Shown here: piece by piece, positions 10,936 through 49,941 of the stretch
How the letters are laid out: each line of letters opens with the position of its first letter
Position numbering within the stretch: position 1 is the stretch's first letter
From: an uncultured Alphaproteobacteria bacterium
Lineage (GTDB): Bacteria > Pseudomonadota > Alphaproteobacteria > Sphingomonadales > Sphingomonadaceae
Reading direction: 5' to 3'
NCBI GenBank assembly: GCA_963779195.1
Contig: CAVZWZ010000008.1
Span: forward strand, 431,289 to 495,288
Length of the DNA: 64,000 bases
Program-made: the position numbers and the translations under genes
The notes under the pieces: model-generated
Databases searched by the model: none
What the model saw: the letters and a program-made list of their open reading frames with translations, nothing else
Told to the model about the DNA's origin: nothing

Positions 10936-10995
10936 GACCGCATGCTGGAGATGGCGGCGGGGACTGTCGGCAAGGGGGATTTGGGGGGGCGGTGA
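10936..10995 (+). repeat. diverged duplicate of the nadA 3' end
   Basis: Encodes DRMLEMAAGTVGKGDLGGR*; 48/51 nt identical to 10333-10383, with all 3 differences synonymous. Confidence 0.93.
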
Positions 10996-11008
10996 AAGGA
11001 GACGGTTG

Positions 11009-12030: not shown

Positions 12031-12045
12031 ATGAATGAGTTCCTG

Positions 12046-12571: not shown

Positions 12572-12763
12572 GCCGTTTCATAAGTGATTCACACATAACA
12601 CGCAATTCGAGACAGGTCGAGAACGGATCGATTCGCCGCCAATCCCACCCCCCATTAGCCCGATCTTAAGCACCCTTTTTTCATACTCCCCCCGTAAAAT
12701 CCGCCCCATCGACCAAACGCGCTGCAAGGGGCGCAGGCGGACCAAGCACAGGGATCGCAGACA

Positions 12764-13693: not shown

Positions 13694-14027
13694 GCTCCGA
13701 AGGCGCTTCCGCCGGCGGCTTGGGCGGCACGGCCTTGGCGGCGGGCCTGCCAGACGAACCCGGCTTGTCCGCTGGCTTGCCACCGGCCTTGCCGCTGGGC
13801 TTGCCGCCGGAACCGCCCTCGCGGTTGGCATCACCGGAATCGGACATTGGCGCCAGCGGCGGCTGCGAGCGCACCGTATCGACCGGCAGCATCGCATCGC
13901 TGACCGAACCGGGCAGCACCTCGCCGCCCGCCGTGCCCGCTGCGGCGGGCGGCTTTTCGCTGTTGCAAGCAGAAATCGCCAGCGTCAGCGCCAGCAGGGC
14001 CATGCGGTAGTCAAGTTTCACAGACAT
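13674..14027 (-). CDS. low-complexity putative lipoprotein
   Basis: Lipobox ALTLAISAC followed by [14 protein letters not shown]; start at 14027 or 14021. Confidence 0.7.
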
Positions 14028-14685
14028 TCTCCGCTGCGCAGGGCCGGTCGAGCGCGGCGAGGAAATCGCCTGCGCGCGCCAGCAGTATGCGATCCCACTG
14101 CGATGAATCAACCTCCAGCCCCAGCCTGGCGAGGCTGGTGACGCCATATTCGCCGATCCCGCAGGGCACGATGCCGGAAAAATGAGAAAGGTCGGGCGAC
14201 AGATTGACCGCAAACCCATGCATCGTCACCCAGCGGCGGATGCGCACGCCGATCGCGCCGATCTTGGCCTCGCGCCCGTCCACGTCCTGGGTCCAGATGC
14301 CGATCCGCCCCTCGCGCCGGAAGCTCTCGACCCCGAGATCGCCCAGCGCGGCGATCACCCAGCCTTCCAGCGCGTGGACATAGCCGCGCACGTCGCGCGC
14401 GCGGTTTCTCAGGTCGATCAGCACATAGCCGACCCGCTGGCCCGGACCATGATAGGTATAGCGCCCGCCGCGCCCCGCCGCGACCACCTCGAAGCGCGGG
14501 TCGAGCAGCTCGGCAGCCGCTGCGCTGGTGCCGCCGGTATAGACGGGTTCGTGCTCCAGCAGCCAGATCAGCTCGCGTCCCGTGCCAGCGGCGATCGCGG
14601 CGTTGCGCCGGTCCATCTCGCCCAGCGCCTGGCGATAGGGCACCGGGGCGCTGTCGCTGCGCAATTCGATGTTGCTGGGTAGCAT
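14011..14685 (-). CDS. lipB: octanoyltransferase
   Basis: [48 protein letters not shown]. Confidence 0.97.
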
Positions 14686-29211: not shown

Positions 29212-30141
29212 ATGAGCAAGGAAACCGCCATGCAGCACTTCGACACCATCCTTCAGATGATGGCAGCCATCCCCGATGAGCAAGCCGCAATTGACCATTT
29301 CACGGCGATCCGCTGGAAGAATGGCGCGTTCTGCCCGCACTGCAAATCCACCCGCGTCTATCACTTCTCTGACAACCGCACCCACAAGTGCGGCGATTGC
29401 CGCAAGCGCTTCTCGATCAAGGTTGGCACCATTTTCGAGGACAGCAAAATCCCGATGCGTTCATGGATGCTGGCGATCTGGCTGATTACGTCGCACAAGA
29501 AGGGCATCGCCAGCACCCAGCTCGCCAAGGACATCGGCGTCACCCAGAAGACGGCGTGGTTCATGACCCACCGGCTGCGCTATGCGATCAAGACGCAGTC
29601 GTTCAATCGCCCGCTGGATGGCATTGTAGAAGCCGACGAAATGTTCGTGGGCGGTAAGGAAAAGAACAAGCACGCGTGGCAGCGCACAGGCGGCAAGCAG
29701 GGCGGCAAGGGTAAGGTCGCCGTCCTTGGGATGCTGGAACGCGAAGGTGAGCTTCGCACTGGCACCACGCCAAATTTGAGCGCCAAGGCTGTTCAGACCG
29801 TCATCCGCGACAACGTGAAAACCGGCGCTGCGGTGATGACCGACGAGCATGGTGCGTTCCTCGGCCTGCAAGGCGACTACAATCACCACCGCGTGAACCA
29901 CACCGCTGGCGAATATGTCCGCCATTATGTCCTGCACACGAATGGCATTGAGAGTGTTTGGGCGCTGTTCAAACGCCAGATCGTCGGCACCCACCACTTC
30001 CTTTCGCCCAAGCATTTGAACGCTTACCTTGGCGAAATGACATGGCGCTTCAATCTGCGCGAAATGGGCGAAGGCGACCGTGTGAACGCCCTTCTCGCGC
30101 AGACCGCCGGAAGGCTGACCCACAAGGCGCTCAAGGCATGA
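29212..30141 (+). CDS. IS1595 family transposase
   Basis: Zn ribbon CPHC...CGDC, GTIFEDS, VEADEMFVGG, MTDEH, HTNGIESVW, YLGEMTWRFN. Confidence 0.97.
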   Translation: MSKETAMQHFDTILQMMAAIPDEQAAIDHFTAIRWKNGAFCPHCKSTRVYHFSDNRTHKCGDCRKRFSIKVGTIFEDSKIPMRSWMLAIWLITSHKKGIASTQLAKDIGVTQKTAWFMTHRLRYAIKTQSFNRPLDGIVEADEMFVGGKEKNKHAWQRTGGKQGGKGKVAVLGMLEREGELRTGTTPNLSAKAVQTVIRDNVKTGAAVMTDEHGAFLGLQGDYNHHRVNHTAGEYVRHYVLHTNGIESVWALFKRQIVGTHHFLSPKHLNAYLGEMTWRFNLREMGEGDRVNALLAQTAGRLTHKALKA

Positions 30142-30311
30142 CCGAGAAGCGAGAGAAGCCCTTGGGGCTGGATATGCCATTTGCGGAAGCGCTCGAACGA
30201 TTCATCGGGGTTGACCCTGCGGAGTTGCCCGAGAACGTGAAACTGAAACGAAAAAAGCCCCCGCCGAAGCGAGGGCCAGGTGTTGCTGGGAAGGCTAGCC
30301 CGAAGGTCTAG
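30138..30311 (+). CDS. small IS passenger protein coupled to the transposase
   Basis: ATGA overlap; MTEKREKPLGLDMPFAEALERFIGVDPAEL...basic tail (57 aa). Confidence 0.7.
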   Translation: MTEKREKPLGLDMPFAEALERFIGVDPAELPENVKLKRKKPPPKRGPGVAGKASPKV

Positions 30312-30389
30312 CTACTTGTGGCGGAAGTGTGCCCGGACGTGTTCGACGCGTCCGAAGCGGATGCGATAATAAGCCTGGATATAGACCAT
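30312..30389 (-). CDS. 25-aa Arg/His/aromatic-rich small protein
   Basis: GGAGGG RBS 4 nt before ATG; MVYIQAYYRIRFGRVEHVRAHFRHK*; stop abuts the stop of the convergent passenger gene. Confidence 0.55.
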   Translation of the reverse strand: MVYIQAYYRIRFGRVEHVRAHFRHK

Positions 30390-30506
30390 CTGGCCCTCCA
30401 TCGTATGATGTGGGTTGCATCCGGTGGCCGATGGTGCGACAAAGTGGTTGCACAGATCGGTCGCTTCGGCACCGGTTCGGAGGCCGCCCCAACGGGCGGC
30501 CTTTTG
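30334..30506 (+). ncRNA. candidate structured RNA inside the IS, antisense to the 25-aa ORF
   Basis: Stems at 30334-30354, 30358-30423 and 30421-30475; G-U wobbles in three helices fit the + strand only; ends in an intrinsic terminator. Confidence 0.45.
30481..30506 (+). terminator. intrinsic terminator
   Basis: AGGCCGCCC-CAAC-GGGCGGCCT followed by TTT and GTTTC. Confidence 0.75.
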
Positions 30507-30641
30507 CGTTTCTGGCTAGATCATGGTCCCATGTGACGCTCCATCGGTTGCCCGGCGTTCCGGGTTGATGGAGAGATTCTGGCATGATTCGCGGTGCTTG
30601 TCAGACAGGATTGGGGACTGGTTCACTCTGGTGGGGGAAAT

Positions 30642-31319
30642 TTAATCCCCGCCCAAATTTCCCCTATTTTCGTTAAGGAATTTGAATAAGTTAGATGCCA
30701 TTGGCTTGAGGGTGGAATCGCCGTAATTTTCCCCCAGCGTGTTCCCGATGTAATCCTCTAGAATTGTCTGCAATTCCGCCTGATTTTTCGGGTTTAGCGT
30801 GCCAGCTTGAATACGGCGGATCATCTCGATCCACAGGTGATCCCACCAGTCCTTGCGCTTTGCGCCCCGGCGTTGGTTCTGGCCGTTGTCAGGGACTGGC
30901 TGGGATGCTGGATTTTGCGAAGCTTTGGCGGGCAGCATCGCGTGGATACCTTCTGGATCGAAGCGGACGCTAAACAGGGACAGCATTAGCCTGTCGTCAC
31001 CATACCCTGTCGTCCCGCCACCGCTGATCGCAACATCGCCTGTTTTCCAAAAATCACGGTTATAGCCGGGCGCCCAATACTTGGCCAAAAACTCGTGCTT
31101 TAGGACTACATACTCCATGCGCTCACCTTCCGGTGTGACAACATGACGCGCCATTGTTTCAACTAGTCCGCTATGCATCCGTGCGCCGATGGCCTTCACG
31201 GTGGTATCCCATTGCCATCCTTGCTCAAGGAAAAGCGCGACCGCTTCCGGAGGCGGAATCCACCCGGTATACTTGGCCGCCAGTGCAGCTGTTATTTCGC
31301 TCGAATCGTCCCCTGCCAT
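30642..31319 (-). CDS. hypothetical IS passenger protein, possible C-terminal DNA-binding domain
   Basis: 225-aa lower-GC ORF starting just inside the right TIR; C-terminal RRGAKRKDWWDHLWIEMIRRI helical region. Confidence 0.7.
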   Translation of the reverse strand: MAGDDSSEITAALAAKYTGWIPPPEAVALFLEQGWQWDTTVKAIGARMHSGLVETMARHVVTPEGERMEYVVLKHEFLAKYWAPGYNRDFWKTGDVAISGGGTTGYGDDRLMLSLFSVRFDPEGIHAMLPAKASQNPASQPVPDNGQNQRRGAKRKDWWDHLWIEMIRRIQAGTLNPKNQAELQTILEDYIGNTLGENYGDSTLKPMASNLFKFLNENRGNLGGD

Positions 31320-31389
31320 CGCCCCATTCTGCCGAATTTCGGCAATGGGTCAAACTGGTATATAGGCCCCAAGATTAAGGGGGCTCCCA

Positions 31390-33198
31390 ATGCGAATAAA
31401 GGGATTTTCGGTCACAGATTTTCCGCCAATTCAAAGTTTTTCTGTAATAGGTGTATCCGATCTTATCGTAATCGCCGGACCAAATGGCGTCGGAAAGTCG
31501 CGATTGGCGACTGCCCTTTTACAGAGCTTCCGATCTCAAACACCTAATACGTCGATCCAAGTTGAAGCAACCAATGACTCTGAAAGAGAGATTTTTCAGA
31601 ACAGGACAATTTCAACTTCTATCGAAAATGATTTTCAGATACTGGCGTCGCTCCTCCAACAGAATAAGCGGCGGAGAAATTTCGCAAGCAGCGTATTGTA
31701 TTATGAGAGTTCTCGATCAATTCAAAAAGTTCAGCCTCTAACGTTCTCGTTTGAATATGCAGATCCTTGGGATGAAATGGTTTCATGGGACCAGACGATG
31801 CAAGGCCTTTCAGGCAGGTGGATGGACACACAGCACGCAATCTTCAAAAAAATTCATACCCAGCGGACATCCCTCGGTAATCGAGCCCAACAACTCAGAG
31901 CCGAAGGCAAGAGCTCGATGAATCTCGAGTTCGATGATCCACTGACAATGTTTAAAGAAGCTTTCCACAAGCTGCTGGCACCAAAAGCTCTTGTGAAGGC
32001 CGATTTGCAATCTCAGCATTTGATCTATGAGGAAAATGGTCAGGAGCTGAACATTGACAATCTCAGCAGTGGCGAGAAAGAAGTTGTTCGCATTTGCTTT
32101 GATTTCATTCTCAGATGGCCATCAGATTGCATCGTCGTTTTCGACGAACCCGAAATCCACCTGCACCCTGAATTGCTTATCCGAATGATCAACACCCTGC
32201 GATCTGTGGGATCGAGGAACCAGTTTGTGCTTCTGTCGCATTCTCCAGACCTGATTAGCACATCACTTGACGATACCGTCGTTTTCCTAACGCCACGCAA
32301 GCCTGACGGTTCAAATCAGGCTGTAGTGGTTGATTCGAGCAGCGAAACTTCAGCGGCCCTTCATGCACTGGGTCAATCCATCGGCGTTCTTTCGTTGGGA
32401 CGTAAGATCGTCATCGTTGAGGGAAATGACGCAAGCCTTGACAAGAAAACCTACGGCGAGTTGCTTCAAAATCAATTTCCGGACCTTGTTCTCGTTCCTG
32501 CAGGTGGTCGAGGTCGGATTGAAGGCTTTCAGGCAACAATTAGCCACCTTCTGGACAAGTCTGTTTGGGGGGTGTCGTTCTTTCTGTATACGGACCTCGA
32601 CGCCAGCGTCGGGCCCAGTTCAAAATCTGCCAGCGAAGCGAATGTGCGCCGGCTCAATCGATATCATCTTGAAAATTACTTTCTCGATTCGGCACTCCTA
32701 GCAAGTTGTTTCGTAGATATGGAACCGCCAGAAAGTTGGCTGCGAGACGGTTTGCAGATTTAAAAGAAACTGCTTGCGATAGCGAGGGCGCAGCTAGGCT
32801 ATGTGACAGCTCTTACGATAAGCAGGACTCTTCGGCAGCGCTTCGGCAATATCGATGTCATGCCAAGGGGCGCGCACAATATGTCACTTGATGACTTGAA
32901 GCTCCAAATTGGTCTTGCTCGACACGCTGAGTTTGATCGGTTTCAGGAATTGATGGATGAAGCGTTATTGATGGCCCTCATCGAGGAAACCTATCAGCGC
33001 TACGATTCCATGACGACTTCGGGCGGCTCAGAGTGGGTTTCACATTTTCCAGGAAAGCCTATTTTTTCCGCATTCTGCGGCCAAGCCAACATTTCGCCGG
33101 GGAGACTCAAATCCCTTTACATCAAGAAAGGCTTGGACACGAACCCGAGTCCCTTCGAGGATATCATCGCCAATTTCAAATATTTTGCTGAATTATAG
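31390..33198 (+). pseudogene. ABC-type ATPase fused to a TOPRIM/DUF4435-like nuclease (OLD/PARIS-like), in-frame TAA at 32761-32763
   Basis: GPNGVGKS, LSSGEKE, VFDEPEIHLHP, LSHS; IVEGNDASLD, TDLD, RYHLENYF; ORF 32803-33198 is in the same frame with no other stop in between. Confidence 0.8.
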
Positions 33199-33621: not shown

Positions 33622-35660
<2,039 letters not shown>

Positions 35661-35699
35661 GTGGGTGATACGAGGTGGGGGATGGAGTGTCTAGTTGTG

Positions 35700-35747
35700 C
35701 TGGCCAACCACTCAATTTATGACAGGATCGACGCGCGCACCGTGACA
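35700..35747 (+). pseudogene. C-terminal remnant of a HigB toxin
   Basis: LANHSIYDRIDARTV resembles the HigB C-terminus (GTHAEYDxIDAxTV) and lies right before higA. Confidence 0.6.
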
Positions 35748-35765
35748 CTGCTTCAGGAGGCCGCT

Positions 35766-36128
35766 GTGAATATCAAACCGATCAAGACCGATGCCGATCA
35801 CGAAGCGGCCTTGCGCGAGATCGAGGCGCTGTGGGGTGCCGCCGAAGGCACACCCGAGGGCGACCGGCTCGACGTGCTGGCAACGCTGGTCGAGGCCTAT
35901 GAGGAAAAGCGCTGGCCGCTCGACGAGATGGACCCGGTTCAGGCCATCGAGGCGGCAATGGCCCACGACGGCCACACCCGCGCCGACCTCGCCGCGCTGA
36001 TCGGCAACAGCCGCGCCACCGAAGTGCTGCGCCGCAAACGCGCGCTGACCCTGCCGATGATCCGGCGGATTTCGCAGGCGTGGCATGTGCCGGAACGGCT
36101 ACTGGTGCGGGAATATGCGGTGGGGTGA
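35766..36128 (+). CDS. HigA-type HTH antitoxin
   Basis: CAGGAGG RBS; IKPIKTDADHEAALREIEALW...GDRLDVLATLVEAYE...SRATEVLRRKRALTLPMIR. Confidence 0.92.
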   Translation: MNIKPIKTDADHEAALREIEALWGAAEGTPEGDRLDVLATLVEAYEEKRWPLDEMDPVQAIEAAMAHDGHTRADLAALIGNSRATEVLRRKRALTLPMIRRISQAWHVPERLLVREYAVG

Positions 36129-36226
36129 GGGGGCTGTATCAGCAAGACATCACGGAATTACCGAGTTCCATGATGAAGTGAGAATGGAATGCGTAATCTG
36201 ACTTGATTGTATCGTTGAAATCGATG

Positions 36227-37024
36227 TTATTTTTTCCGTTGACTTGAAAGTTTTGATCTCGTAATTCTGAGAATCCTATCCTCACTATCATCGGTTAGCT
36301 CCCAACCAAATACCATCGCAGTGCGGCAAGTCCATACACTTGCCTTGCTCGGAAATCCATCGAGGCCGTCATCCGGCCATGATTTTTCGGAAACATCGCA
36401 AACCATCCGCCTTCGTGAAAGACATGTTCGGAGGCATGCAGAATCGCATCTGTCTCTCTCCTCCATTCGCCCAGAATTGTCCAATTATATCTTCATCCGA
36501 GCCGACTAAAGAAGAAAACCGCGTCGCAAAGTGCTTTCGTGCTTTGTTTCCTCTGACATTCTGATGCCAGAATCGATTCACCTCCTCAGGTGACCTTGCT
36601 GAGATGTAACTCGCGGCAAATTGAACATCCAAGCAGCAACATCCGGCCACATCGGTGCGTTCACGCACCGAGCGAAGGATATTTCGAGCCTGCATGTCAT
36701 ATCCGCGGCTGCATAATAGCTGGACAGATTGTAAATCTGTTCTCAGCAGAGCGAAGACGGTGAAAGCGGCGCGATATCTGTCATCTGCTTTTTCGTTTGT
36801 GGCCAAAACAAGCGTCAGGTGTGAAATGACTGTCATGGTGAAATCAGAGCAGTAGCTCAACGCAAGCAAATGTCGCCTAAGCGAAAGCGGTCGGACGGGA
36901 TCAATTCAAGATTGTAGCGTCTCTTTTCGATATCCTTCTGGGACGGTTGAAGCCCAGATCGCTGTAAGATTGCCAGCAGGTCATTTCCGGATTTCAACGG
37001 GATCGGAAGAGGATCAATTTGCAT
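36227..37024 (-). pseudogene. lower-GC fragmented hypothetical gene
   Basis: Three overlapping minus-strand ORF pieces (36857-37078, 36369-36869, 36227-36484); helical core SVQLLCSRGYDMQARNILRSVRE. Confidence 0.45.
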
Positions 37025-37053
37025 TGTGAATATGGCCGACTGTCGCATCTTCC

Positions 37054-37527
37054 CTACTCGAACGCCATCAGATCGCAATGCTTAGCGCCTTGCGAAGCCG
37101 AACGATTCGCAAGCCGAATTAGCACCACCTCCCCCCTCACCTCCGCCAGCAAGTCCGGGTGCCGATCCAGCACCCTGAACAGCTTGACCAGCGCCAGCGG
37201 CGGCTTGGTCTTGCCGTTCTCATAGCGCGAAAACGCATTGGCGCCGCCGCCGAATAGCTCGGCGGCTTCCTGCTGGTCGAGGCGCAGTTTCTTGCGCACT
37301 GCGCTGATAAACGCCGGATCGACCTTGGCGGCGTTCACCTGTTTGCCGAACGCCTTCATCTCCGCGCTGACCCTGCGCGAGGTCGGTGCATCGAACACAC
37401 CTTCGCCGCAGGCGGGGCACCAGTCGCCCGCAATGCCGGCAATCGCGGTGGTTTCGCCCTTGTAGATATAGGGCATGTCGCGCGTGTCGCGGATCAGTTC
37501 AGCCTCGCCGCAATTGGGACACTTCAT
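37054..37527 (-). CDS. mqsA: MqsA antitoxin (Zn finger + HTH) with an extended C-terminus
   Basis: MKCPNCG...CPACGE...RKKLRLDQQEAAELFGGGANAFSRYENG. Confidence 0.93.
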   Translation of the reverse strand: MKCPNCGEAELIRDTRDMPYIYKGETTAIAGIAGDWCPACGEGVFDAPTSRRVSAEMKAFGKQVNAAKVDPAFISAVRKKLRLDQQEAAELFGGGANAFSRYENGKTKPPLALVKLFRVLDRHPDLLAEVRGEVVLIRLANRSASQGAKHCDLMAFE

Positions 37528-37529
37528 CG

Positions 37530-37826
37530 TCATAGCTCCTTGAACGAAACGATCAGCACATCGTCGATAACCGTCAGTTTGAGATAGACGTCTCCCGCCG
37601 CTGTCCTCGGCTGGTAAACATCTTGCCACACGCGGTGATCGGCATGGGTGGTCATGCTCTTGTAGAAGTCACCCACGGTCAGCGCGCGGATGACATCGAG
37701 CATGTCATCGAACGCTAAATCCATCGCCGCCGCACCGCCAAGCGCTGTCATCGTCGCGCGGACTTGCCCCTGTTCGACCAGCGCATGAACGCGTGGCAAG
37801 GGGCAATGCGGCTTGCGTTTTTCCAT
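37530..37826 (-). CDS. mqsR: MqsR mRNA interferase toxin
   Basis: MEKRKPHCPL...DFYKSMTTHADHRVWQDVY...YLKLTVIDDVLIVSFKEL. Confidence 0.95.
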   Translation of the reverse strand: MEKRKPHCPLPRVHALVEQGQVRATMTALGGAAAMDLAFDDMLDVIRALTVGDFYKSMTTHADHRVWQDVYQPRTAAGDVYLKLTVIDDVLIVSFKEL

Positions 37827-37923
37827 TGCGGCATTGCCTAGCCGAATTTGCACAATTTGGCAAGTAGGTTAATTTGAGCCGCCCATTTGCCCCCAACGGG
37901 GACAGCCAATAGGGTGTCCCCGC

Positions 37924-38569
37924 ATGACCATGCTCTACCGCCTCGACGTCAGCGCCGCCGCAGATCGCGCAGACCTTTGCCGCACGCCAAGGCGACGATC
38001 CCTGGCAGCCCGCCCATATCGCCCCCGGCAGCTTCGCCCCCATCGTCACCTCTGGCCGCGAATTCATCGCCGGTCCGCGCCCGACCGACGAACCGCCCCG
38101 CCGCATCATCCCGCGCCAATGGGGCGTGCCCCCTCCCCCCGCCGCCGGAGACAGTGGCCGCGCGGTGCTGAGCGTGCGCAACCTCGAAAGCCCGTTCTGG
38201 ATTGGGAACTTGCGCAACAGCGAGTTCCGCTGCCTGGTGCCCGCGACCTCGTTCATGGAATGGGGCCCAAAATCACGAGAAGGGGGCCGCGACCGGGAAG
38301 GCAAGCGCCGCCAGTGCTGGTTCGCCTGTTCCGACCAGCCGGTTTTCGCCTTCGCCGGGGTGTGGATCGACAGCGAAGTTCCCAGCTTCGCGCTGCTCAC
38401 CTGCGAGGCCAATGCCGCGCTGCGTTCCGAAGGCCGCGAGACCATGCCCGCGATCCTGCCGCCCGATCCCAGGGCGCACGACATCTGGCTGCGCGGCGAC
38501 TGGGCGCGGGCGAGGGACTTGCTGGCGCCCTATTCCTCGTCGCTGATGCTGATGCGCGAGGCGCGCTGA
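37924..38569 (+). CDS. SOS response-associated peptidase (SRAP/HMCES) family protein, frameshifted in the 5' part
   Basis: QWGVPPP, RNLESPFW, RCLVPATSFMEW, FAFAGVW, FALLTCEAN, MPAIL. Confidence 0.85.
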
Positions 38570-38800
38570 ACGGGCCAATCCCCCCGCCATGGTTAACAGC
38601 CATGGTTAACCTGTTTTCCCTTGTTTTTCATACTATTCGCTGTGACCCTCAATTGCCACGGCTGGGCCGAATCCGCCCCTCCGCCGTTTGGTCCGACTCG
38701 CATTGAGGCATAGCCATATGGCCAACCCGCCGGGGAGACGGGCGGGATTCCCGAGGGTCGCGGCTCGCGAGGGGGCACCTCAAACCTAGGGAAGCCTATC

Positions 38801-40768
38801 ATGACCGACAAAGACCAAGAGTTCGACGCCCTGCACGATCTGCAAGGCCAGGCCGGCGCCATCGAGGACCTGCTCGCGGCGCGCGGCGCCTTCGAGCAAG
38901 CCTATGCCGCCTTCCGCGCCGAAAGCCCCGAAAAGTTCCAGGCGGTGCTCGCCAAGGCCAAACTGCAAATCCATTGCGAGCGCATCTGCCACTGGATCCG
39001 CACCAAGGAATGCGTGTTCCTCTGCCTCGATCTCGCCGGGCCGCCGGTCGCCTTCGAACGCGCGCCCGATCCGCGCGTGCTGGCCAAGGCGATCGCCAAG
39101 CTGGGCGAGGACGACAGACTGCTCCAGCGGGTCGCCGAAATTCTGGTCAAGCGCGACAAGCGCGGCTTTGCCGAGGTGCTCGACAAATTGGGCCTGGTGC
39201 AGCACGCGCATCTGTTCTGCCACTGGCTGTGTGCGATCCGCTACCGGCTGGTGTGCCGCTGGATCTGCCAGGTAGAGCGCTTCGAGCCGCCGGTGCTGTG
39301 GCGCGAGATCAAATTCGCCGCGCAGGCGATCGGCGCGCTGGCGAAGGACGAGGCCGCGTTCAAGGCCGCAGCGGCGGCGTCGGCGGCAGGCGACAGCGTG
39401 AAACTGGCCGGCGCGGTGCGCCAGGCCGGGCTGCTGATCCGCTGCCACTGGGTCTGCGAATTCTTCTGCTCATGGCGCTGCGTGCTCGCCTGCCTGCATC
39501 TGTCCCGCCGCTTCCCCTTCCAGCCAATCGAGGGCGCGGCGCAGATCAAGGAGGCGCGCGAGTTCGCCGCCATCTCGGTCAGACTGGCGCAGGATCCGGG
39601 CTCGCTGATGCAGCTCAGCGCCGCAGTCGGCGCGGGCGATGCCGAGAAATGGGCGGTGCTGCTCAAGAAGTTCAAGCTCGAACGCTTCGCCTTCCAGCTG
39701 TGCCACTGGATCTGCGGCTGGCGCTGCTACCGCTTCTGCCACCGGGTCTGCATCGACATCGACTATCACCCGTGGTTCACCCATATCGGCCACTTCACCA
39801 TCACCGGCGACATCTCGCCGGCGACCGGGCTGACCAACGGGCCCAAGCTCGGCCACGGCGGGCCGAACTACGGCTTCCGGGGCGGGCTCAGCCTGCGCGG
39901 GTTCTGCCCGAAATACGACCCGGCGCATCCGGCCGAACGCATGGCCTACCGCTTTCTGTTCCATCCAGCGGGCGCACCCGCGCCGGTGCCGATCACCGGC
40001 GGCTTCGTCCACGAGGTCTCGGTCGGCACCCGCAAGGCGCTGTGGAACGGCAATTGGGAACAGCAGGATGTCATCATCCGCGGCGCCGGGGGAACCTCGC
40101 CGACCCCGCCGGTGCCCGGCCCCGGGCTGTTCCCGCCGCCACACTTCATCGAGCCCGACGCCAAGGGCTGGGTGACGGTTGACCTCGACGCGGCGGATGC
40201 GGCGTTCAACGGCTATCTGATGGGCTTCGCCTCGGCTGTCGCCATTCCCGGCGGCCCGGCAGCCACCACCGTCGCCGCCGGCACTGCGGTTCCCGCCGCC
40301 GAACAGAAGAACGGCGCGGACTGCGCCATCATCTACCAGGCGACGCGGACCGGCACGATCGCCGCAGTCAACGGCGGCGCGGCGCCCGACTACACCAACA
40401 TGGTCGGCAAGGTGCGGATCAACAACTGGAACGAGGTTGCCTTGCTCGATCTCCTGCAGTTCCACAGCGGCGGCGGCACCTCCTGCTCGCCGCTGTCGAG
40501 CGCGCTGGATATCGAATATACCGTCGATCACGAGCTGATCGCGGCGTGGAGCGTCGGCCTGTCCTCGGCCTCGGGCATGACCCTGACCAGCCCGCCGCCG
40601 CCGCCGCAAACCGCGCGAGGCGGGGCGGGGACGCACCATGAGAACATCTCGGCCTGGCCGACCTGTTCCTACACGGTGACGCTGTCCACCCGGATGCGGC
40701 TGACCGACGGGATCGTGGACGATTCCGGCAGGACCTTGCCGAAGACCTTCTGCATCGGCCGGCGTTAG
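38801..40768 (+). CDS. hypothetical 655-aa protein: four Cys-ladder repeats + beta-rich C-terminal region
   Basis: Long ORF with host-like codon usage, own terminator and four ~80-aa repeats each ending in C-x3-C ladders containing CHW. Confidence 0.85.
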   Translation: MTDKDQEFDALHDLQGQAGAIEDLLAARGAFEQAYAAFRAESPEKFQAVLAKAKLQIHCERICHWIRTKECVFLCLDLAGPPVAFERAPDPRVLAKAIAKLGEDDRLLQRVAEILVKRDKRGFAEVLDKLGLVQHAHLFCHWLCAIRYRLVCRWICQVERFEPPVLWREIKFAAQAIGALAKDEAAFKAAAAASAAGDSVKLAGAVRQAGLLIRCHWVCEFFCSWRCVLACLHLSRRFPFQPIEGAAQIKEAREFAAISVRLAQDPGSLMQLSAAVGAGDAEKWAVLLKKFKLERFAFQLCHWICGWRCYRFCHRVCIDIDYHPWFTHIGHFTITGDISPATGLTNGPKLGHGGPNYGFRGGLSLRGFCPKYDPAHPAERMAYRFLFHPAGAPAPVPITGGFVHEVSVGTRKALWNGNWEQQDVIIRGAGGTSPTPPVPGPGLFPPPHFIEPDAKGWVTVDLDAADAAFNGYLMGFASAVAIPGGPAATTVAAGTAVPAAEQKNGADCAIIYQATRTGTIAAVNGGAAPDYTNMVGKVRINNWNEVALLDLLQFHSGGGTSCSPLSSALDIEYTVDHELIAAWSVGLSSASGMTLTSPPPPPQTARGGAGTHHENISAWPTCSYTVTLSTRMRLTDGIVDDSGRTLPKTFCIGRR

Positions 40769-40799
40769 CCCGGGGAGGTCCCGGCAGGGAGAAGGCAAG

Positions 40800-40826
40800 G
40801 GCGGGAGCCGGAAAGCTCCCGCCTTT
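40800..40826. terminator. hairpin terminator between convergent genes
   Basis: GGCGGGAGC-CGGAAA-GCTCCCGCC followed by TTTG. Confidence 0.75.
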
Positions 40827-40842
40827 GCTGTTGGCCTGCCCC

Positions 40843-41760
40843 TCACAAAGTATAAGTCAGCCCCGCGCCGAACATCCATTGCCCCCGCTTGCCGCGCTGG
40901 ACGACGATCGGCGACTTCGCCGCGAAGCCCTTGAGCCTTGTATATTGCGCGCCGACTGCCAGCGCGAAGCCGCCGTCGAGGAAATTGTTGTTGAAGTCGA
41001 AAGCCGCGAGCCCGGCAACCCGCACCGCCTTGATCCCGCCCTTGGCGGTGTAGGCGGGCAGCCCGCTCGCCGCGCTCGCCGCCGCAGTCACGCCGAAGTG
41101 GTAATTGGCGTATTTCCGGTCGGCGAACTCCGCCCCGGCTTCCACGCCGATCGCCTTGCCCTTGCTCAGCGGGGTGAAATATCCCGCCGTGGGCGCGGCG
41201 ACCTTGCCCGCGCCCTTGCCCGAGATGTCCCAGCGGACACTGCCGCCCAGCGAGAGCGAATCGTGCTTGTTGAGCACCCGCTTGATGTCGATCCCGGCGT
41301 TCACCCCCGCCTCGAACACGCCCTTGAGTTTGGGCAGGGCGGCGATGACCGGATCGGGGTTCTGCTTGGTGCGGTTGCCGTTGTATTGCACCGTCGGGCC
41401 AAGGTGAAAGCCCAGCTTGGCGGCCTTCCCGTCCTTGACGAAATCGAAGGTGACGGCGGGCCCCTTGACGGTGAAGCCGACGCCCTTGACCGTGCCGATC
41501 GCGCCTGCGGCCGGCAGCGGATGGATGTCTTTCGAACCTTCGAAGCGCGGCAGGGCGACGACGCCCGCGCCGGCGATCGCATAGTCGCCCTCGAACACCG
41601 AATTCCACGGTTTGGGCAGCTCGCGGTCGGCCAGGCTGTTGGCGCTGCTGGTCAGCTGGTCGGGGTTGAAACCGGTGGCGTCGCTGGCGAGCGTGACCGG
41701 TCCCGGCGGCGATCCCGGGCTGGCGGACAGCATGGCTTGGGCGAGCAGGGTCAGTTGCAT
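40843..41760 (-). CDS. MipA/OmpV family outer membrane protein
   Basis: LPRFEGSKD, ADRKYANYHFGV, GLPAYTAKGG, AAKSPIV, C-terminal beta signal. Confidence 0.88.
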   Translation of the reverse strand: MQLTLLAQAMLSASPGSPPGPVTLASDATGFNPDQLTSSANSLADRELPKPWNSVFEGDYAIAGAGVVALPRFEGSKDIHPLPAAGAIGTVKGVGFTVKGPAVTFDFVKDGKAAKLGFHLGPTVQYNGNRTKQNPDPVIAALPKLKGVFEAGVNAGIDIKRVLNKHDSLSLGGSVRWDISGKGAGKVAAPTAGYFTPLSKGKAIGVEAGAEFADRKYANYHFGVTAAASAASGLPAYTAKGGIKAVRVAGLAAFDFNNNFLDGGFALAVGAQYTRLKGFAAKSPIVVQRGKRGQWMFGAGLTYTL

Positions 41761-41849
41761 GGCGGTTCCGCGACTTCGGCCAGTGCCGCCGGTTAGCTCA
41801 CCTCAGGCAGCAGGCCAAGTTTCCCACCCGTGCTAACTGTTGAAACCTT

Positions 41850-42686
41850 TCAGAAGATATATGCGAACCCGCCGCCGAACAGCCACTGGCTGTCCTTGCC
41901 CCGGATCCGCGTCACCGGACTGGCCGCAGCGCTGCCGTAAAGATGCGAATACATCGCGCCGACCGCTGCGGCGAGGCCGCCGTTGAGGAAATCGCCGTCG
42001 AGATCGCGCGCGGTGAAGACGCCGAGGTTCCAGTCCTTGAAGCCGCCCCGCGCGTCGTAGACCGGCAGCCCGCTGGCGGCCGCGCCGGCGGGGGTGACCG
42101 AAAAATTGTAGCGGGCATAGCGCGCATCGATGAAATTGGCGGTCGCGGCCAGGCCGATCACCTGCGCGCGGCTGACGGGGGTGAGGTAGCTCACTCCCGG
42201 CGAGACGATATAGCCGCTGCCGCGCCCCGAGATATCCCAGCGAACATCAACGCTGAGGCTCAGCGAATCGTGCGGATTGAGCACCCGCTTGATTGCCACG
42301 CCCGCAGTCGCCCCGCCTTCGACCACGCCCTTCAGCTTGCCGAGTTTGGCGACAACCTCGTCGCGGGTGTTTCCGCTGCGGTTGGTGCGGTAGCGCAGCA
42401 CCGGGCCGAGGGTGAGGCCGACGCGCTCGTCCGAATCGGGCACGATGTCGAGCGCAATGCCCGCCGCGCGCGGATTGATCGCGATCCCGCCGATCCGCCC
42501 GGCGACGCCCGCAGCGGGAATGACCGAGAGGCTGTCCGACCCTTCATAGCTTGGCACGGCCACAGGCCCCGCGCCGACAATCAGGAAATCGCCATCGAAC
42601 ACGCTTTTGTCGGGCGCGATGGCCGGCGCTTCCTGCGCAGCGGCGGGAACGGCGGCGAGGGAGAGCAGGAGGATCAGGCGGCGCAT
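41850..42686 (-). CDS. MipA/OmpV family outer membrane protein (tandem paralog)
   Basis: Signal peptide; PSYEGSD, YARYNFSV, GLPVYDARGG, AAASPV, YIF end. Confidence 0.9.
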   Translation of the reverse strand: MRRLILLLSLAAVPAAAQEAPAIAPDKSVFDGDFLIVGAGPVAVPSYEGSDSLSVIPAAGVAGRIGGIAINPRAAGIALDIVPDSDERVGLTLGPVLRYRTNRSGNTRDEVVAKLGKLKGVVEGGATAGVAIKRVLNPHDSLSLSVDVRWDISGRGSGYIVSPGVSYLTPVSRAQVIGLAATANFIDARYARYNFSVTPAGAAASGLPVYDARGGFKDWNLGVFTARDLDGDFLNGGLAAAVGAMYSHLYGSAAASPVTRIRGKDSQWLFGGGFAYIF

Positions 42687-42735
42687 GCTGCCCGGTATAG
42701 CGGTTTTGCATGGGTCTCCAAGCGGTTGCCGGAAC

Positions 42736-44199
42736 TCATGCGGCCGGCGGCGGCGGTGCGCCGGGAATGCGCAGCGTCATGCCGATGGCGATGTCGTCGG
42801 GATTGTCGATCCTGTCGCGGTTGGCGGCGAAGATCTCGCGCCAGCGCGCGGCGTCGCCGAAATGCTGCCGGGCGAGCTTGTGGAGCGTGTCGCCACGCTG
42901 CACGGTGTGCTCGGCCAGCGGGGCTGCGGCCAGCTGCCCCGGTGCAAACGGCCAGGCCGCGATCGCCTGCGCGGCATCGGCCAGCGTCCTGGGCCGATAG
43001 GGTCTGGCGCCAGGCAGCTCGCCGGGCGCGGCATACCAGCGGCGCAGGGCCGCCAGCGCGAGTTCGTCGAGCGAGGCCGGGCCCTTGCGCGGCCGCTGGA
43101 ACAGCCGCCGCAGCCAGATCAGCGGCGGCCGGTCGGCGATGCCCCGCGCCGATTCGTTGCGCAGCTCGTCCAAGGGGTTGCGGGTCAGGCTGTAGACCGG
43201 GCTGGTGTCGCTGGTGCGGATATCGAGCCCCGCCGCGCGCGCTCCCCACAGCACCCAGGCCAGCGCCTCGTCCGACAGCCCGCGCCGGCTGCCGCCGCCG
43301 CCGACCGCGCCGTGCACGCCGGGGAACCAGCGTTCCTGATAGGGCAGCTCCCAGTCGTCGAGCGGCGGCCGCCGTTCATTGCTCCGCTTCGTCTGTTCGA
43401 AACCATTGAGCTCGCGCACCTTGTCGCGGCCCAGCAGCGTCGGGCGGAAGGTCACGCGGGGCTCGTCGATGGCGACGGCATGGCGGGCGGATTTGACCTT
43501 GCTGGTCAGCACTGCGTCGTGGAAGGCATAGCGGCGGTTGAACCACGCCGAGCCGGGGATGAATTCGGGAATGCCCAGCGCCCGCACCGTGTCCCATACG
43601 CCGACGAAGCGGATGTCGAGGATCGGCAGGCTGGCCGGGTCGTAACCGGCGGGATGGCTGCCTTTGCCGTCGCCTGAGGCGAAAGTCGCGATGCGATAGG
43701 CGCGGTCGTCCTCGCTGACGCAGATGCCGGTGCAATGGGCCTCGCGGAACTTGAGCCCGTCGAGCGATTCCATCCCGCGCATCTTGGCGGGGGCCTTGCG
43801 GTAGATCTCGATCGCTTTTTCGATCTGCGAAGCGCTGACCGCATCGAGGATGCCGGCATGGCGGATGAAGCCGGCAAACGAGCGCGCGGTATAGGCCCCG
43901 CGCGAAAAGCCGAAGGCGAAGATTTCGTCGCCGGGCGCATAGTTGAAGATCAGGAAGCGATAGGCCTCGGCGATGATCTGCATCATCCCGTGGCCCAACG
44001 CGCCGCGCATCAGCTTGGTCAGCTTGTTTTCGGTGCCGATGCCTTCGTCGTAATAGACCAGCTGCGGCGTGCCGTCGCGCGCGGTCGGTTCGATCATCTG
44101 GGCGATGCGCACGACATTGGTCGGGCAATCGGCGGCGAGCCGGTTCCAGGTGCCGTCGAAGCAGAACACCAGCCGTTTGGGTTTGCGCGGCTCGGTCAT
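42736..44199 (-). CDS. DUF2235 (Tle1-like alpha/beta hydrolase) fused to a C-terminal LysM domain
   Basis: FCFDGTWN, YYDEGIGT, GFSRGAYTAR, GVWDTV, WFPGVHGAVGGG; LysM HTVQRGDTLHKLA...WREIFAANRDRIDNPDDIAIGMTLRIP. Confidence 0.92.
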   Translation of the reverse strand: MTEPRKPKRLVFCFDGTWNRLAADCPTNVVRIAQMIEPTARDGTPQLVYYDEGIGTENKLTKLMRGALGHGMMQIIAEAYRFLIFNYAPGDEIFAFGFSRGAYTARSFAGFIRHAGILDAVSASQIEKAIEIYRKAPAKMRGMESLDGLKFREAHCTGICVSEDDRAYRIATFASGDGKGSHPAGYDPASLPILDIRFVGVWDTVRALGIPEFIPGSAWFNRRYAFHDAVLTSKVKSARHAVAIDEPRVTFRPTLLGRDKVRELNGFEQTKRSNERRPPLDDWELPYQERWFPGVHGAVGGGGSRRGLSDEALAWVLWGARAAGLDIRTSDTSPVYSLTRNPLDELRNESARGIADRPPLIWLRRLFQRPRKGPASLDELALAALRRWYAAPGELPGARPYRPRTLADAAQAIAAWPFAPGQLAAAPLAEHTVQRGDTLHKLARQHFGDAARWREIFAANRDRIDNPDDIAIGMTLRIPGAPPPPAA

Positions 44200-44228
44200 C
44201 GGCGGGCTCCCTTCGGACATGGCGGGCG

Positions 44229-44816
44229 CTATCCGCCCGCCTGCCACAGCCTCACTGCATCCACCGGCCACACCAGCATCAGAATGTTTAACGAAAGGTT
44301 ATCGCGGATCATCGCCAGGGTGAACAGCTCGAACAGCACGGTCAGCCCCGCGCTGGCCCAGGCGGCGATGCGGCTGGCCAGCCAGAAGCCCAGCACCATC
44401 CAGCCGATGTCGGCCATCGAATTGAGGATCGAATCGCCCGAATAGCCGAAGCTGACGGTCACCGCGCGGTAGCGGTCGATGATCATCGGCGAGTTCTCCA
44501 GCAGTTCCCAGCTCGCCTCCAGCGCCACCGCGATCGGCAGCGCCCAGCGCGCCAGGATGCCGTCGAAGATGTTCCAGCGCCGCCACAGCAGATGCGCCGC
44601 GCCATAGAACAGCAGCCCGTGGATGATGTGGCTGAAGCTATACCAGTCGGCGATGTGCTGGCTGTTCTCCGACGATTCCACCGCGCCCCACCACAGCTTG
44701 ACCGTGCCGCACTCGCAGATCGGCGGGCGCTGCATGGCGAACAGGATGAAAGCGCAATAGGCCCAGATTAGCGCCGCGAGGATCGCCGCGCGGCGGGTGG
44801 GGAGCAGGCTGGTCAT
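44229..44816 (-). CDS. DUF2585 (UPF0314) membrane protein
   Basis: RPPICECG, NSQHIADWYSFSHIIHG, WELLENSP, YSGDSILNS, IRDNLSLN. Confidence 0.93.
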   Translation of the reverse strand: MTSLLPTRRAAILAALIWAYCAFILFAMQRPPICECGTVKLWWGAVESSENSQHIADWYSFSHIIHGLLFYGAAHLLWRRWNIFDGILARWALPIAVALEASWELLENSPMIIDRYRAVTVSFGYSGDSILNSMADIGWMVLGFWLASRIAAWASAGLTVLFELFTLAMIRDNLSLNILMLVWPVDAVRLWQAGG

Positions 44817-47730: not shown

Positions 47731-48645
47731 CTATCCGCCCCCGTGATCGCCGCGCCCGAAGTCGGGCCGGGCATCGTCCTGGCCTTCTGCGATGATCGAG
47801 CGGCGGATGGCGCGGGTGCGGCTGAAGTGGTCGAACAGCGCCTCGCCGTCGCCCACCCTTATCGCGCGTTGCAATGCGGTCATGTCCTCGGTGAAGCGCT
47901 GGAGCATTTCCAGCACCGCTTCCTTGTTGGCGAGGAACACGTCGCGCCACATCGTCGGGTCGGAGGCGGCGATGCGGGTGAAATCGCGGAAACCGCCGGC
48001 GGAATATTTGATCACTTCGCTCTGCGTCACCTGCTCCAGGTCCGAAGCAGTGCCGACGATGGTATAAGCGATGAGGTGCGGCAGATGGCTGGTCACCGCC
48101 AGCACCAGATCGTGGTGCTGGGCGTCCATGATTTCGACATTGGCGCCGAGCGCCTCCCAGAACTGCACCAGCCCGGCGAGCAGATCCGGATCGGCATCGG
48201 CCGGCGGCGTGACGATGCACCAGCGGTTGTGGAACAGCGCGGCGAAACCGGCATCGGGGCCGGAGTTCTCGGTTCCCGCCACCGGATGCGCGGGGATCAC
48301 CGCGTGGCCGGGCAAGGCCTCGCCCAGCGCCTGGGCGATCGACTGTTTGCACGAGCCGACATCGCTGACCAGCGCGCCCTTGGGCAGGGCATCGGCGATC
48401 TCCCGCGCCGCCTCGCCCATCGCGCCGGGGGGCACGCAGAAAATGACCAGATCGGCCTCGCGCACCGCTTCGGCGGCGGTTTCGCAAATTGTGTCGGCAA
48501 GCCCGCGCTCGCCCGCGCGCTGGCGGGTGGCGGGATCTCGATCATAGCCGGCGGTCGCGGCGCCGGGGATATGCTGGCGCACCGCCAGCCCGATCGAGCC
48601 GCCGAGCAGGCCAAGGCCGATGATGGCGATGCGCTGGAAGGTCAT
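47731..48645 (-). CDS. tyrA: prephenate/arogenate dehydrogenase
   Basis: [50 protein letters not shown]. Confidence 0.95.
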
Positions 48646-48651
48646 GGTAAG

Positions 48652-48737
48652 CCCCTCCCCTTCAGGGGAGGGGTTGGGGAGGGGCCTGTCAGACTCCCAC
48701 ACGCCCCACCCCCGGCCCCTCCCCTGAAGGGGAGGGG
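48652..48737. repeat. composite palindromic element (CCCCTCCCCTTCAGGGGAGGGG family)
   Basis: Arms 48652-48685 and 48703-48737 are inverted copies, each internally palindromic; fills the hisC-tyrA gap. Confidence 0.9.
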
Positions 48738-48754
48738 AGCAATCGCGCAAAAAG

Positions 48755-49869
48755 TCACTTCGCGCCCTCCGCCATCTCGCGCAAACCGGCGGCGATCGCG
48801 TCCATCTGCTGCGCCGTGCCGATGGTGATGCGCAGCCCATGCGGCAGGCCCTGTCCCGGCAGCCAGCGGGCGATGTAGCCGCGCTCGGCGAGGCCATGAT
48901 AGGCCGCCTCGGCGCTCAGCTTGCCCTCGAACAGGATCAGCACGAAATTGGCCTGGCTCGGCACCGCCCGCAACCCGTGGTTGCCCATCGCCTCCACCGC
49001 CGCGACGAAGCGCGCGCGTTCGGCGGCGTTGTGGCGGCGCGACATGCTCGACGAAGGCCTGGTCGCCGACGGCGGCCAGGCAGGCCGCCTGCGCGCTGTT
49101 GCTCAGGTTGAACGGCCCGCGGATGCGGTTGAGCACGTCGATCAGTTCAGCAGCCCCGGTCGCCCAGCCGACCCGTTCGCCGGCCAGGCCATAGGCTTTG
49201 GAGAAGGTCCGGGTCACCAGCACATTGGCGTGAGCTGGCGGCGAGCTCCAGCCCGCCGTCGTCGTCTTCGGGCGCGACATATTCGCCATAGGCCTGATCG
49301 AGCACCAGCAGCACATCGGCGGGCAGCGCGGCATGCAGCCGGGCGATCTCGCCGCGGGCCAGGAAGCTGCCGGTGGGGTTGTTGGGATTGGCGATGAACA
49401 CCACCCGGGTCTTGTCGTTCACCAGCGCCAGCAGCCCTTCGATATCGGTGCCGTAATCCGCGTCGGGCGCGACCACCGGCGTCGCGCCGCAGCGGCGGGC
49501 GACGATGTCGTAGAGCGAGAAGCCGTAACGCACATAGAGCACCTCGTCGCCCGGCCCGGCAAAGGCGCTGGCGGCGATGGCGAGCAGCTCGCCCGAGCCG
49601 GTGCCGCAGAGGATGCGCGCCGGATCGATGCCGTGCAGCGCACCCAGCGCCTCGCGCAGGGCCACGCTGTCGGGATCGGGGTAGAGCGAGGGCATCACCG
49701 CTTCGGCGCGCGCCGCCAGCGCCTTGGGGCTGGTGCCCAGCGGGTTCTCGTTGGCCGAGAGCTTGATCAGCGGCCGCCCGTCCGCGCCGCCAAAGTCACT
49801 GGCGCTCTTGCCGGGGACATAGGCGTGGATCGCGGCGATCCAGGGCTTGGGGATGGGGGCGAGTGGCAT
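48755..49869 (-). CDS. hisC: histidinol-phosphate aminotransferase, two frameshifts (~49235, ~49045)
   Basis: [59 protein letters not shown] across three frames. Confidence 0.93.
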
Positions 49870-49941
49870 GGCGGGGGCGCCCTTAGCCGAGCCCGCGAGG
49901 AATTGACAGAGCATCGGCGCTCGCCCAAGCCGCAGCGCACC

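Follow-up and report, generated by a model that had tools for sequence, protein, structure and literature searches.

The 64,000-nucleotide stretch of DNA analyzed here (the window; positions 431,289 to 495,288 of contig CAVZWZ010000008.1, from an uncultured alphaproteobacterium of the Sphingomonadaceae) encodes a 655-residue protein with 23 cysteines, which is present in one copy in the genome. Eighteen of these cysteines stand in four ladders (59, 63, 71, 75; 140, 144, 152, 156; 215, 219, 223, 227, 231; and 301, 305, 309, 313, 317), for which we refer to it as the ladder protein, and the other five (369, 508, 562, 622 and 651) lie in its C-terminal region. Co-evolution among homologs shows that the ladders pair across helices as two zippers, the rungs of which are probably disulfides, and argues against the common metal-binding core that a preliminary description of the sequence had proposed.

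The ladder gene, its product and its family

That the open reading frame (ORF) is a real gene follows from its G+C content at third codon positions (GC3) of 0.89 and from its 197 homologs (7,994 candidates scored), which are mostly full length, with 43–69% identity among the 120 listed. The gene stands alone, as had been noted, with an SRAP gene upstream and two convergent mipA genes downstream (Table 1), and an 87%-identical relative in an alphaproteobacterial genome (locus L002) has the same flanking genes. The terminator attributed to the ladder gene alone stands in part: a strong 15-bp hairpin does follow the stop codon, but our consensus terminator scanner did not list it, and it is likely a terminator shared with the convergent mipA gene.

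Table 1. Coordinates of the ladder gene, its predicted parts and flanking signals, and of the separate Csp3 gene of the same genome
Feature	Position	Strand	Basis
Ladder protein gene	38801..40768	+	ORF calls, homologs
Ribosome-binding-site-like purine-rich stretch, 6 nt ahead of ATG	38788..38794	+	read from sequence
Terminator-like hairpin 3' of SRAP gene, sets SRAP apart from ladder gene	38591..38611	+	
G+C-rich 15-bp hairpin between ladder-gene stop codon and convergent mipA	40794..40829	.	z -3.96
N-terminal domain, residues 1–320, four repeats, one compact predicted domain	38801..39760	+	AlphaFold
Ladder helix 1, residues 59–79 (C59, C63, R67, C71, C75, A79), pairs with ladder 2	38975..39037	+	
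Ladder helix 2, residues 136–156 (A136, C140, C144, Y148, C152, C156), register i+j=215 with ladder 1	39206..39268	+	
Ladder helix 3, residues 215–235 (C215, C219, C223, C227, C231, S235), pairs with ladder 4	39443..39505	+	
Ladder helix 4, residues 297–317 (A297, C301, C305, C309, C313, C317), register i+j=532 with ladder 3	39689..39751	+	
First predicted beta-sandwich, about residues 321–543, long conserved Gly/Pro-rich insertions, C369 and C508	39761..40429	+	AlphaFold
Second predicted beta-sandwich (Ig/FnIII-like), residues 544–655; C562, C622 and C651 nearly invariant	40430..40765	+	AlphaFold
Csp3 gene	G000:C2 about 530,800–531,250 (L085:1177–1611)		DUF326 match

The ladder protein has 12 CxxxC steps (100,000 shuffles averaged 0.77 and never exceeded 7), and it is the only one of the 33,040 six-frame ORFs of the genome to contain a five-rung ladder. 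Its four ladder repeats align with one another and measure 75–88 residues, so that the earlier count of four repeats of about 80 residues, with 18 ladder cysteines and five more, is confirmed. The strict i+4 register described for them also holds, ladders 1 and 2 skipping their middle rung (R67 and Y148) but staying in phase; the family ladder has six positions per helix. The family-wide domain counts below refer to 287 non-identical domains, retained from 368 profile matches when they had <15% gaps. The ladder cysteines are conserved in the homologs, as are Trp 65, 142, 225 and 303 (97–99%), Glu251, Gln299, Phe255 and Lys69, and His137, His141 and His302 beside the ladders (85–93%). A CHW motif, which the preliminary description had seen in every repeat, is indeed present in all four repeats of the window protein, but is typical across the family only of repeats 2 (244/287) and 4 (243/287), being found in 40 of the domains in repeat 1 and, one rung out of register, in 27 in repeat 3; on these counts, we rejected it as a four-fold family motif. 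We note that Lys69 (region 38999–39007), Glu251 (39551–39553) and Gln299 (39695–39697) are 97–99% conserved polar residues in an otherwise hydrophobic core, where they could possibly form a buried polar site or a cross-link.

AlphaFold modeled the whole protein with a predicted local distance difference test (pLDDT) score of 93, and residues 1–320 alone with a pLDDT of 92.8 and a predicted template modeling (pTM) score of 0.90. Each repeat of the N-terminal model consists of three outer helices and one ladder helix of 23–24 residues, for a total of 16 helices, in line with the earlier suggestion that the ladders lie on long helices within one compact domain. The beta-like region previously noted behind the ladders is predicted to form two beta-sandwiches of the immunoglobulin (Ig)/fibronectin type III (FnIII) class, to the first of which relatives add an optional cysteine pair, 362–404. 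A fold search with this C-terminal half returned 410 chains with Z of at least 5, of which those shown are nearly all beta-sandwiches aligned to residues 321–655, the best being RbmA (Z 8.3, root-mean-square deviation (rmsd) 2.7, 97 aligned residues). For the N-terminal model, Foldseek found no match at E ≤ 0.001 in either the PDB or the viral libraries, and VIA-align against 48,161 chains gave a best Z of 4.6 and none of 5 or more; the absence of any copper storage protein (Csp) from the best 50 VIA-align matches shows neither that the fold is new nor that it is unlike a Csp. Going by these models, the N-terminal domain may be a new fold. Matches of the whole model to the S-layer protein SbsC (E about 1e-3, template modeling (TM) score 0.1, rmsd about 30) were rejected as noise.

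In a profile search, 505 cluster representatives matched at E ≤ 0.001, and 189 at 1e-30, with named carriers among Sphingomonas, Kiloniellaceae, Limisphaerales, Vicinamibacteria, Acidobacteriaceae, Edaphobacter, Anaerolineaceae and Actinomycetes. The gene is absent from 300 further genomes of the same family and from 300 of the phylum, and the ladder family has no match in viral contigs, plasmids or phages. A scan of the genome collection, performed with a single sequence, yielded one locus, with thin coverage of named genomes. The family is rare, spread across phyla and unannotated. That it belongs to no known family, as first proposed, is borne out by the searches, which gave no Pfam family at E ≤ 1, no match in NCBIfam, PADLOC or PHROGs, no family match among PDB sequences with a single query and two profiles (best E 0.007, to de novo helical designs), and, in the ESM Atlas, three unnamed clusters under 0.9 and then nothing usable. 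No paper on it was found in the literature searched, the coverage of which mostly excludes subscription journals. The family is undescribed.

Judging from the sequences of its relatives, the family is also modular, combining with other C-terminal parts. In some relatives, other Cys-rich beta regions follow the ladder domain, and a single protein may have as many as 47 cysteines; the C-terminal region of the ladder protein is also found behind tandem transthyretin-like domains. The latter arrangement defines a sister family (P0194, P0199–P0208, P0212, P0223, P0229, P0269, P0296 and P0298) that is Cys-rich and without an obvious signal peptide, with some very acidic members. Two further proteins, P0288 and P0297 (37% identical to each other, and known from their protein sequences), have two repeats only, which form a single zipper (6+6 Cys) followed by a different beta region.

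Two antiparallel cysteine zippers

The gain and loss of cysteines in the family identifies their partners. Among 110 close homologs, variable cysteines are gained or lost in the pairs 79–136, 235–297 and 362–404. Over the 287 domains, the variable ladder cysteines have their best covarying partner at i+j=215 between ladders 1 and 2, or at i+j=532 between ladders 3 and 4, the exceptions being 215 and 219, which hardly vary, and 313 and 317, for which there is no informative partner. The strength of this coupling can be seen from the numbers of domains with cysteine at both positions, the first only, the second only and neither, which are 231, 4, 0 and 50 for 235–297, 221, 9, 0 and 57 for 79–136, and 59, 1, 6 and 220 for 67–148.

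As kin are not independent observations, we also counted joint changes on a tree from which the cysteine columns had been excluded, and obtained 49 such changes in the 13 register pairs, compared to 1.2 expected. In 98 of 154 changes, the partner changes on the same branch; pair 75–140 has no joint branch on the tree, yet covaries in the table of counts. A mean-field contact analysis of the 287 sequences likewise recovered the zipper pairs and gave a weak hint of contacts between repeat 1 and repeat 4, although it is noisy beyond the top rows. Because the variable ladder cysteines co-change one-to-one across helices, these sequence data show two antiparallel zippers, one of ladder 1 with ladder 2 and one of ladder 3 with ladder 4. 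In the window protein, the predicted register rungs are 59–156, 63–152, 71–144, 75–140, 215–317, 219–313, 223–309, 227–305 and 231–301, such that its 18 ladder cysteines make up nine complete rungs with no orphan, and the three rungs it lacks are lost on both sides (R67/Y148, A79/A136 and S235/A297).

Taking the geometry into account, the cysteine stripe of each ladder spreads over 160–200° around a straight helix, compared to 60–80° for the 4-3-4 pattern of Csps (columns 32, 36, 39, 43 etc.). In an idealized calculation of helix pairs, a straight pair cannot bring the C-alpha atoms closer than 8 Å, and a right-handed pair crossing at about 50–65° places all six rungs at C-alpha distances of 4–5.5 Å, from which we infer that the ladder helix pairs cross right-handed at about this angle. 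To bring all four stripes onto the axis of one four-helix bundle, in contrast, would take a pitch angle of 45–55°, compared to 15–17° in Csps. In light of the two zippers, the spread of the stripe and this pitch angle, the single Csp-like thiolate core suggested by the preliminary description is unlikely: in its place, we find one-to-one co-evolution across two separate helix pairs, and both the existence of two-repeat versions and the negligible similarity to a Csp3 profile (see below) point the same way.

Chemistry of the rungs and role of the protein

Two cysteines that come and go together could form a disulfide, but a linear S–Cu–S bridge also takes two cysteines. We consider the rungs to be disulfides rather than metal bridges with reasonable, though far from complete, confidence, because coupling along the same helix is near background, optional cysteine pairs occur alone, lost rungs are replaced by Ala-Ala or Arg-Tyr, and there is no similarity to Csp3. 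On the tree, joint changes amount to 4 over the 20 same-helix i+4 pairs and average 0.21 across the remaining 338. Outside the ladders, the isolated pair 199–315 has 6 joint changes, and the pair 362–404, followed in 233 beta regions, has 16 joint changes out of 20 and 18 (0.78 expected); pairs 561–590 and 547–575 in the beta domains also switch on and off, and no His, Cys, Asp, Glu or Met column tracks these lone optional beta-domain pairs on the tree. Where end rungs are lost, they become Ala-Ala in 42 of 57 and 23 of 50 cases, 181 of the 287 domains have Arg-Tyr as the middle rung of zipper 1, and the 314 replacements at 22 core positions include 2 His and no Met, Asp or Glu. Finally, a profile–profile comparison of the ladder family with 28 Csp3 sequences gave a probability of 0.5% (E 0.13), and the ladder protein has no DUF326 (Pfam, E ≤ 1), whereas the genome's own Csp3 does match. 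Even and odd cysteine counts (200 of 275 even, compared to 22 of 119 for Csps) are largely a reflection of the base count, and we made no use of them. Structural disulfides, which had been named at the outset as an outcome that would speak against metal storage, are therefore the likeliest state here, with metal held between the paired thiolates as a considerably less probable one.

Several observations weigh against this assignment. As a control, we analyzed paired loss in the genome's own Csp3 and 120 relatives, a set that is small and less divergent (61–93% identity), in which 19 of 35 cysteine changes are accompanied by another. The partners are mixed and include cross-helix co-changes (32–89 twice, 43–93, 100–113 and 36–60), in addition to the same-helix pair 53–57, which co-changes on four branches, and the residues that replace Csp cysteines are likewise small; because this control also shows some paired loss, such loss alone does not exclude metal. 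Furthermore, C369, C508 and one of C562, C622 and C651 have no shown partner, the carriers include Anaerolineaceae, which are anaerobes going by name, and the bacterial cytoplasm is reducing. Structural disulfides in the cytoplasm are described as mainly a trait of thermophiles (PMC1188242), although there is a precedent in the Cys-rich structural protein CsxA, which is assembled in the cytoplasm (PMC7333573).

The location of the protein also bears on this issue. The window protein has neither a signal peptide, as originally stated, nor a membrane helix, its best 19-residue hydropathy being 1.25. When 208 full-length members were put through crude hydrophobicity and twin-arginine tests (two MipA proteins serving as positive controls), 8 were flagged; for 7 of them the stretch lies within the first helices of the domain itself, and the remaining one is a fusion to another protein. 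No twin-arginine translocation (Tat) motif was found among the 208. These results suggest, less firmly than we hold the disulfides themselves, that synthesis of the protein takes place in the cytoplasm, with no signal peptide. The neighborhoods described below likewise give the assignment no help, as no conserved operon or partner gene was found across the 81 loci.

On balance, we lean, by a modest margin over doubt, toward a disulfide-stapled structural or adhesive protein. The ladder helices would pair as the two antiparallel zippers, with each cysteine facing a fixed partner, and the nine rungs (up to twelve in relatives) would close as disulfides, locking a rigid, degradation-resistant domain that carries two Ig/FnIII-like domains with a likely role in binding or self-assembly. 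The thiols would be pre-aligned upon folding in the cytoplasm and could be oxidized cooperatively, either in place or after lysis or release independent of Sec, following which the oxidized protein might act as a tough structural or adhesive accessory protein. The site of oxidation and the structural or adhesive role are proposed by analogy with CsxA, which assembles, and probably also becomes cross-linked, within the cell (PMC7333573), and are accordingly weaker suggestions than that of the disulfides. A more ambitious version, which we regard as somewhat doubtful, is that the protein represents a new fold of two right-handed helix pairs, each with as many as six disulfides in a row, in a leaderless, Cys-rich and modular family that is spread horizontally and would form its disulfides without Sec or Dsb, through self-oxidation in the cell or an unrecognized export, and in which the C-terminal beta module would possibly be a signal or assembly unit.

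The gene neighborhoods of homologs were examined at 80 of the 231 metagenome loci found and at one genome locus, together representing 43 clades at 80% identity; genes were called with a home-made program that at some loci chose the wrong strand. From the closest two genes to either side came 141 cluster representatives, of which 93 and one further protein were scanned, with those of <90 residues and some others left out. Among these 94 proteins, no copper ATPase, chaperone, multicopper oxidase, Cus or efflux family was found, and the metal-linked neighbors are one Nramp, one chromate transporter and one CitMHS protein. Homologs of a small BTAD regulator lie near the ladder gene in 8 clades, and a divergent one just upstream in about 6 of the 33 clades with at least 1 kb of upstream sequence, because of which expression of the ladder gene is likely conditional. 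A leaderless S8 protease lies 3' of the ladder gene in 3 of the 23 clades with at least 2 kb downstream, in clusters resembling those for peptides made ribosomally and then modified post-translationally (RiPPs), and YcaO-TfuA lies upstream in 1 clade. At L007 and L069 (about 2,500–14,200), the homolog is found inside such a cluster, flanked to one side by TfuA, YcaO and a small unknown protein and to the other by a kinase, HopA1-like and LanC-like proteins and an S8 protease whose repeated, Cys-rich tail looks from its sequence like a fused precursor. At L016, L023 and L024, the S8 protease downstream of the homolog is leaderless and has a Pro-rich repeated tail; genes for a small protein and for a 2OG-Fe(II)-like protein come after it at both L016 and L023, as does one for a RiPP radical SAM C-methyltransferase (B12 radical SAM, TIGR03975) at L023.

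In the window, the stretch between thiC and the ladder gene (35661–38569) is an insert with a HigA-like antitoxin gene, an unknown 166-residue ORF, an mqsR-mqsA toxin–antitoxin pair and then SRAP; membership of the ladder gene in a defense island was considered and rejected, as the toxin–antitoxin genes are absent beside the 87%-identical relative. Beyond the ladder gene (40843–44271, minus strand) are the two tandem mipA genes and a gene for a Tle1-like (DUF2235) protein with a C-terminal LysM domain, in a genome that has no match to the sheath of a type VI secretion system (T6SS). The thiC gene (33622–35606, minus strand) is split over three frames, probably through assembly indels, its 93%-identical counterpart in L002 being a single frame of 624 residues, and a hisC-like gene near 48642–49914 also appears to be spread over two ORFs. 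Further away, 29212–33198 is a low-GC island with an IS1595 transposase and an AAA ATPase protein, the best PADLOC match of which is PARIS-type AriAB (E 7e-52) and which possibly runs on into the next ORF.

The most serious competitor to a disulfide-stapled protein is a soft-metal binder, which would remain reduced in the cytoplasm and hold one Cu(I), Ag(I) or Hg(II) between the two thiolates of each rung, and perhaps further ions on the CxxxC steps within a helix, such that 9–20 ions would be stored or detoxified. We regard this as unlikely, although far from negligible. The absence of an export signal, the 18–24 conserved helix cysteines with their CxxxC steps, the paired loss across helices that Csps also show to some extent, and the conserved histidines beside the ladders (His137, His141 and His302) would all suit it, and in Csp3, eight sites use CXXXC within one helix and the rest use cysteines of adjacent helices (PMC5171941). 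Against it, same-helix i+4 pairs co-change near background here, whereas in the Csp control pair 53–57 co-changes on four branches. Lone optional pairs in the beta domains without a third ligand, a middle rung that is Arg-Tyr in most members, and a lack of copper families among the 94 neighbor proteins scanned also speak against metal storage, for which, moreover, the genome encodes a separate, true cytosolic Csp3 (144 residues, DUF326, E 2e-26 to PDB 5ARM) to which the ladder family has no profile similarity.

The one-to-one pairing would also suit a cytoplasmic redox buffer or switch, in which the rungs would alternate between the dithiol and disulfide (or persulfide) states, taking up oxidants and altering the shape or binding of the beta domains. 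The lack of a leader and the divergent BTAD-type regulator found upstream in some clades agree with such a role; however, in the predicted model twelve outer helices enclose those of the ladders, thioredoxin-type partners are no recurring neighbor, and the pyridine-nucleotide disulfide oxidoreductase family (3 loci) and GST found at some loci look like local gene order. In addition, optional pairs gained in beta-sandwiches are typical of stabilizing bonds, and we consider a redox role improbable.

There is only a slim chance that the protein is instead a precursor, from which a co-encoded subtilase would release the disulfide-stapled helix pairs as active peptides, in the way that alpha-hairpinins are released from plant vicilin precursors (PMC7191063). 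The S8 proteases and YcaO-TfuA of the RiPP-like clusters, with their kinase, HopA1-like and LanC-like proteins or TIGR03975, make this conceivable in the clades concerned, but no such genes surround the window gene, its 87%-identical relative or the ladder genes of most clades, the outer helices and beta domains are conserved as much as the ladders, unlike disposable pro-regions, and about 55 residues of folded helices separate the paired helices. Least probable of all is cargo of a contractile injection system, whether extracellular (eCIS) or T6SS, a role that would account for the export of a protein that has no signal peptide. It is prompted by a homolog directly before gp25 and two baseplate genes (baseplate-J) of an injection-system-like cluster (L061:1–7034) and another after a gene with an eCIS core domain (L074), but is hard to reconcile with the presence of baseplate genes at 1 of the 81 loci, the other surroundings of close relatives of the L061 protein (L042, L043 and L058), the lack of any phage-sheath or VipB match in the window's genome (85% complete), and the absence of the family from viral contigs, phages and plasmids.

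If the rungs are disulfides, as we favor, a mesophilic bacterium makes 9–12 or more bridges in a protein without a signal peptide, raising the question of where and how they are oxidized, and stapled helix pairs of great stability have in this domain a natural template. If the rungs hold metal, they would constitute a second architecture of thiolate metal storage beside the Csps. The co-evolution map names each predicted bridge.

Comparison with known systems

A close parallel is with Csp1 and Csp3 (DUF326, PF03860; PDB 5ARM and 5FIG), which have about 18 helix-borne cysteines, CxxxC steps and four cysteine helices, and include cytosolic members without a signal (PMC5171941, PMC5519932). Csps are, however, bundles of 110–145 residues with 4-3-4 spacing, in which the thiols point into one core and are kept from forming disulfides; 13–20 Cu(I) are described as bound per monomer, with an apo form that resists disulfide formation (PMC5171941). 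The ladder protein, in contrast, has strict i+4 spacing, two one-to-one zippers, three outer helices between ladders and two beta domains, and it lacks both of the Csp features that can be tested from sequence, namely a DUF326 or Csp profile match and the 4-3-4 spacing. Its domain model has 16 helices, and structure searches gave no clear match to anything.

For the pairing itself, the ladder protein would resemble a greatly extended staple of the plant alpha-hairpinins and vicilin-buried peptides, described as two antiparallel CXXXC helices with nested Cys1–Cys4 and Cys2–Cys3 bonds (PMC7191063). Co-evolution shows the same nested cross-helix CXXXC register in the ladder family, with bonds that are putative disulfides. 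As described, the plant peptides are short and secreted, with a short loop, two rungs and precursors that have signal peptides (PMC7191063), whereas the ladder protein has four to six rungs per pair and two pairs, in a 320-residue bacterial domain without a signal. Clusterin, in turn, has a disulfide domain with five antiparallel disulfides along one helix (PMC12527946), but is a secreted vertebrate chaperone in which short helices in a zigzag, rather than a single long one, make up the partner; with a Foldseek E of 1.1 and a TM score of 0.12 against the ladder model, it is an analogy, not a relative. The ladder protein thus belongs to neither of these two groups.

Small Tim (twin CX3C) and CHCH proteins are also helical hairpins stapled by i+4-spaced cysteine pairs, and are made reduced and later oxidized. 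They are mitochondrial proteins of about 10 kDa with two rungs and a dedicated import oxidase, and we found no similarity of the ladder protein to them. Assembly inside the cell would be shared with the spore-surface proteins CsxA, ExsY and CotY, which are Cys-rich and disulfide cross-linked, CsxA forming sheets in the cytoplasm of Escherichia coli (PMC7333573). They differ, however, in being confined to spore formers, with cross-links that are thought to join subunits in a lattice; the named carriers of the ladder family belong to the Alphaproteobacteria, Acidobacteriota, Limisphaerales, Anaerolineaceae and Actinomycetes, and the ladder protein has no family match to these spore-surface proteins.

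The C-terminal half, for its part, resembles FnIII/Ig-like adhesins and scaffolds, including Vibrio RbmA, alpha-2-macroglobulin (macroglobulin (MG) domains, Z 7.7) and the HPI S-layer protein (Z 6.2), with middling scores, 7–13% identity and a fold so common that no function can be transferred. Taken together, stapling of helices by i+4 disulfides is already known, from two-rung peptides and from clusterin; what is new here concerns the family itself, how long its zippers are and the setting in which they occur.

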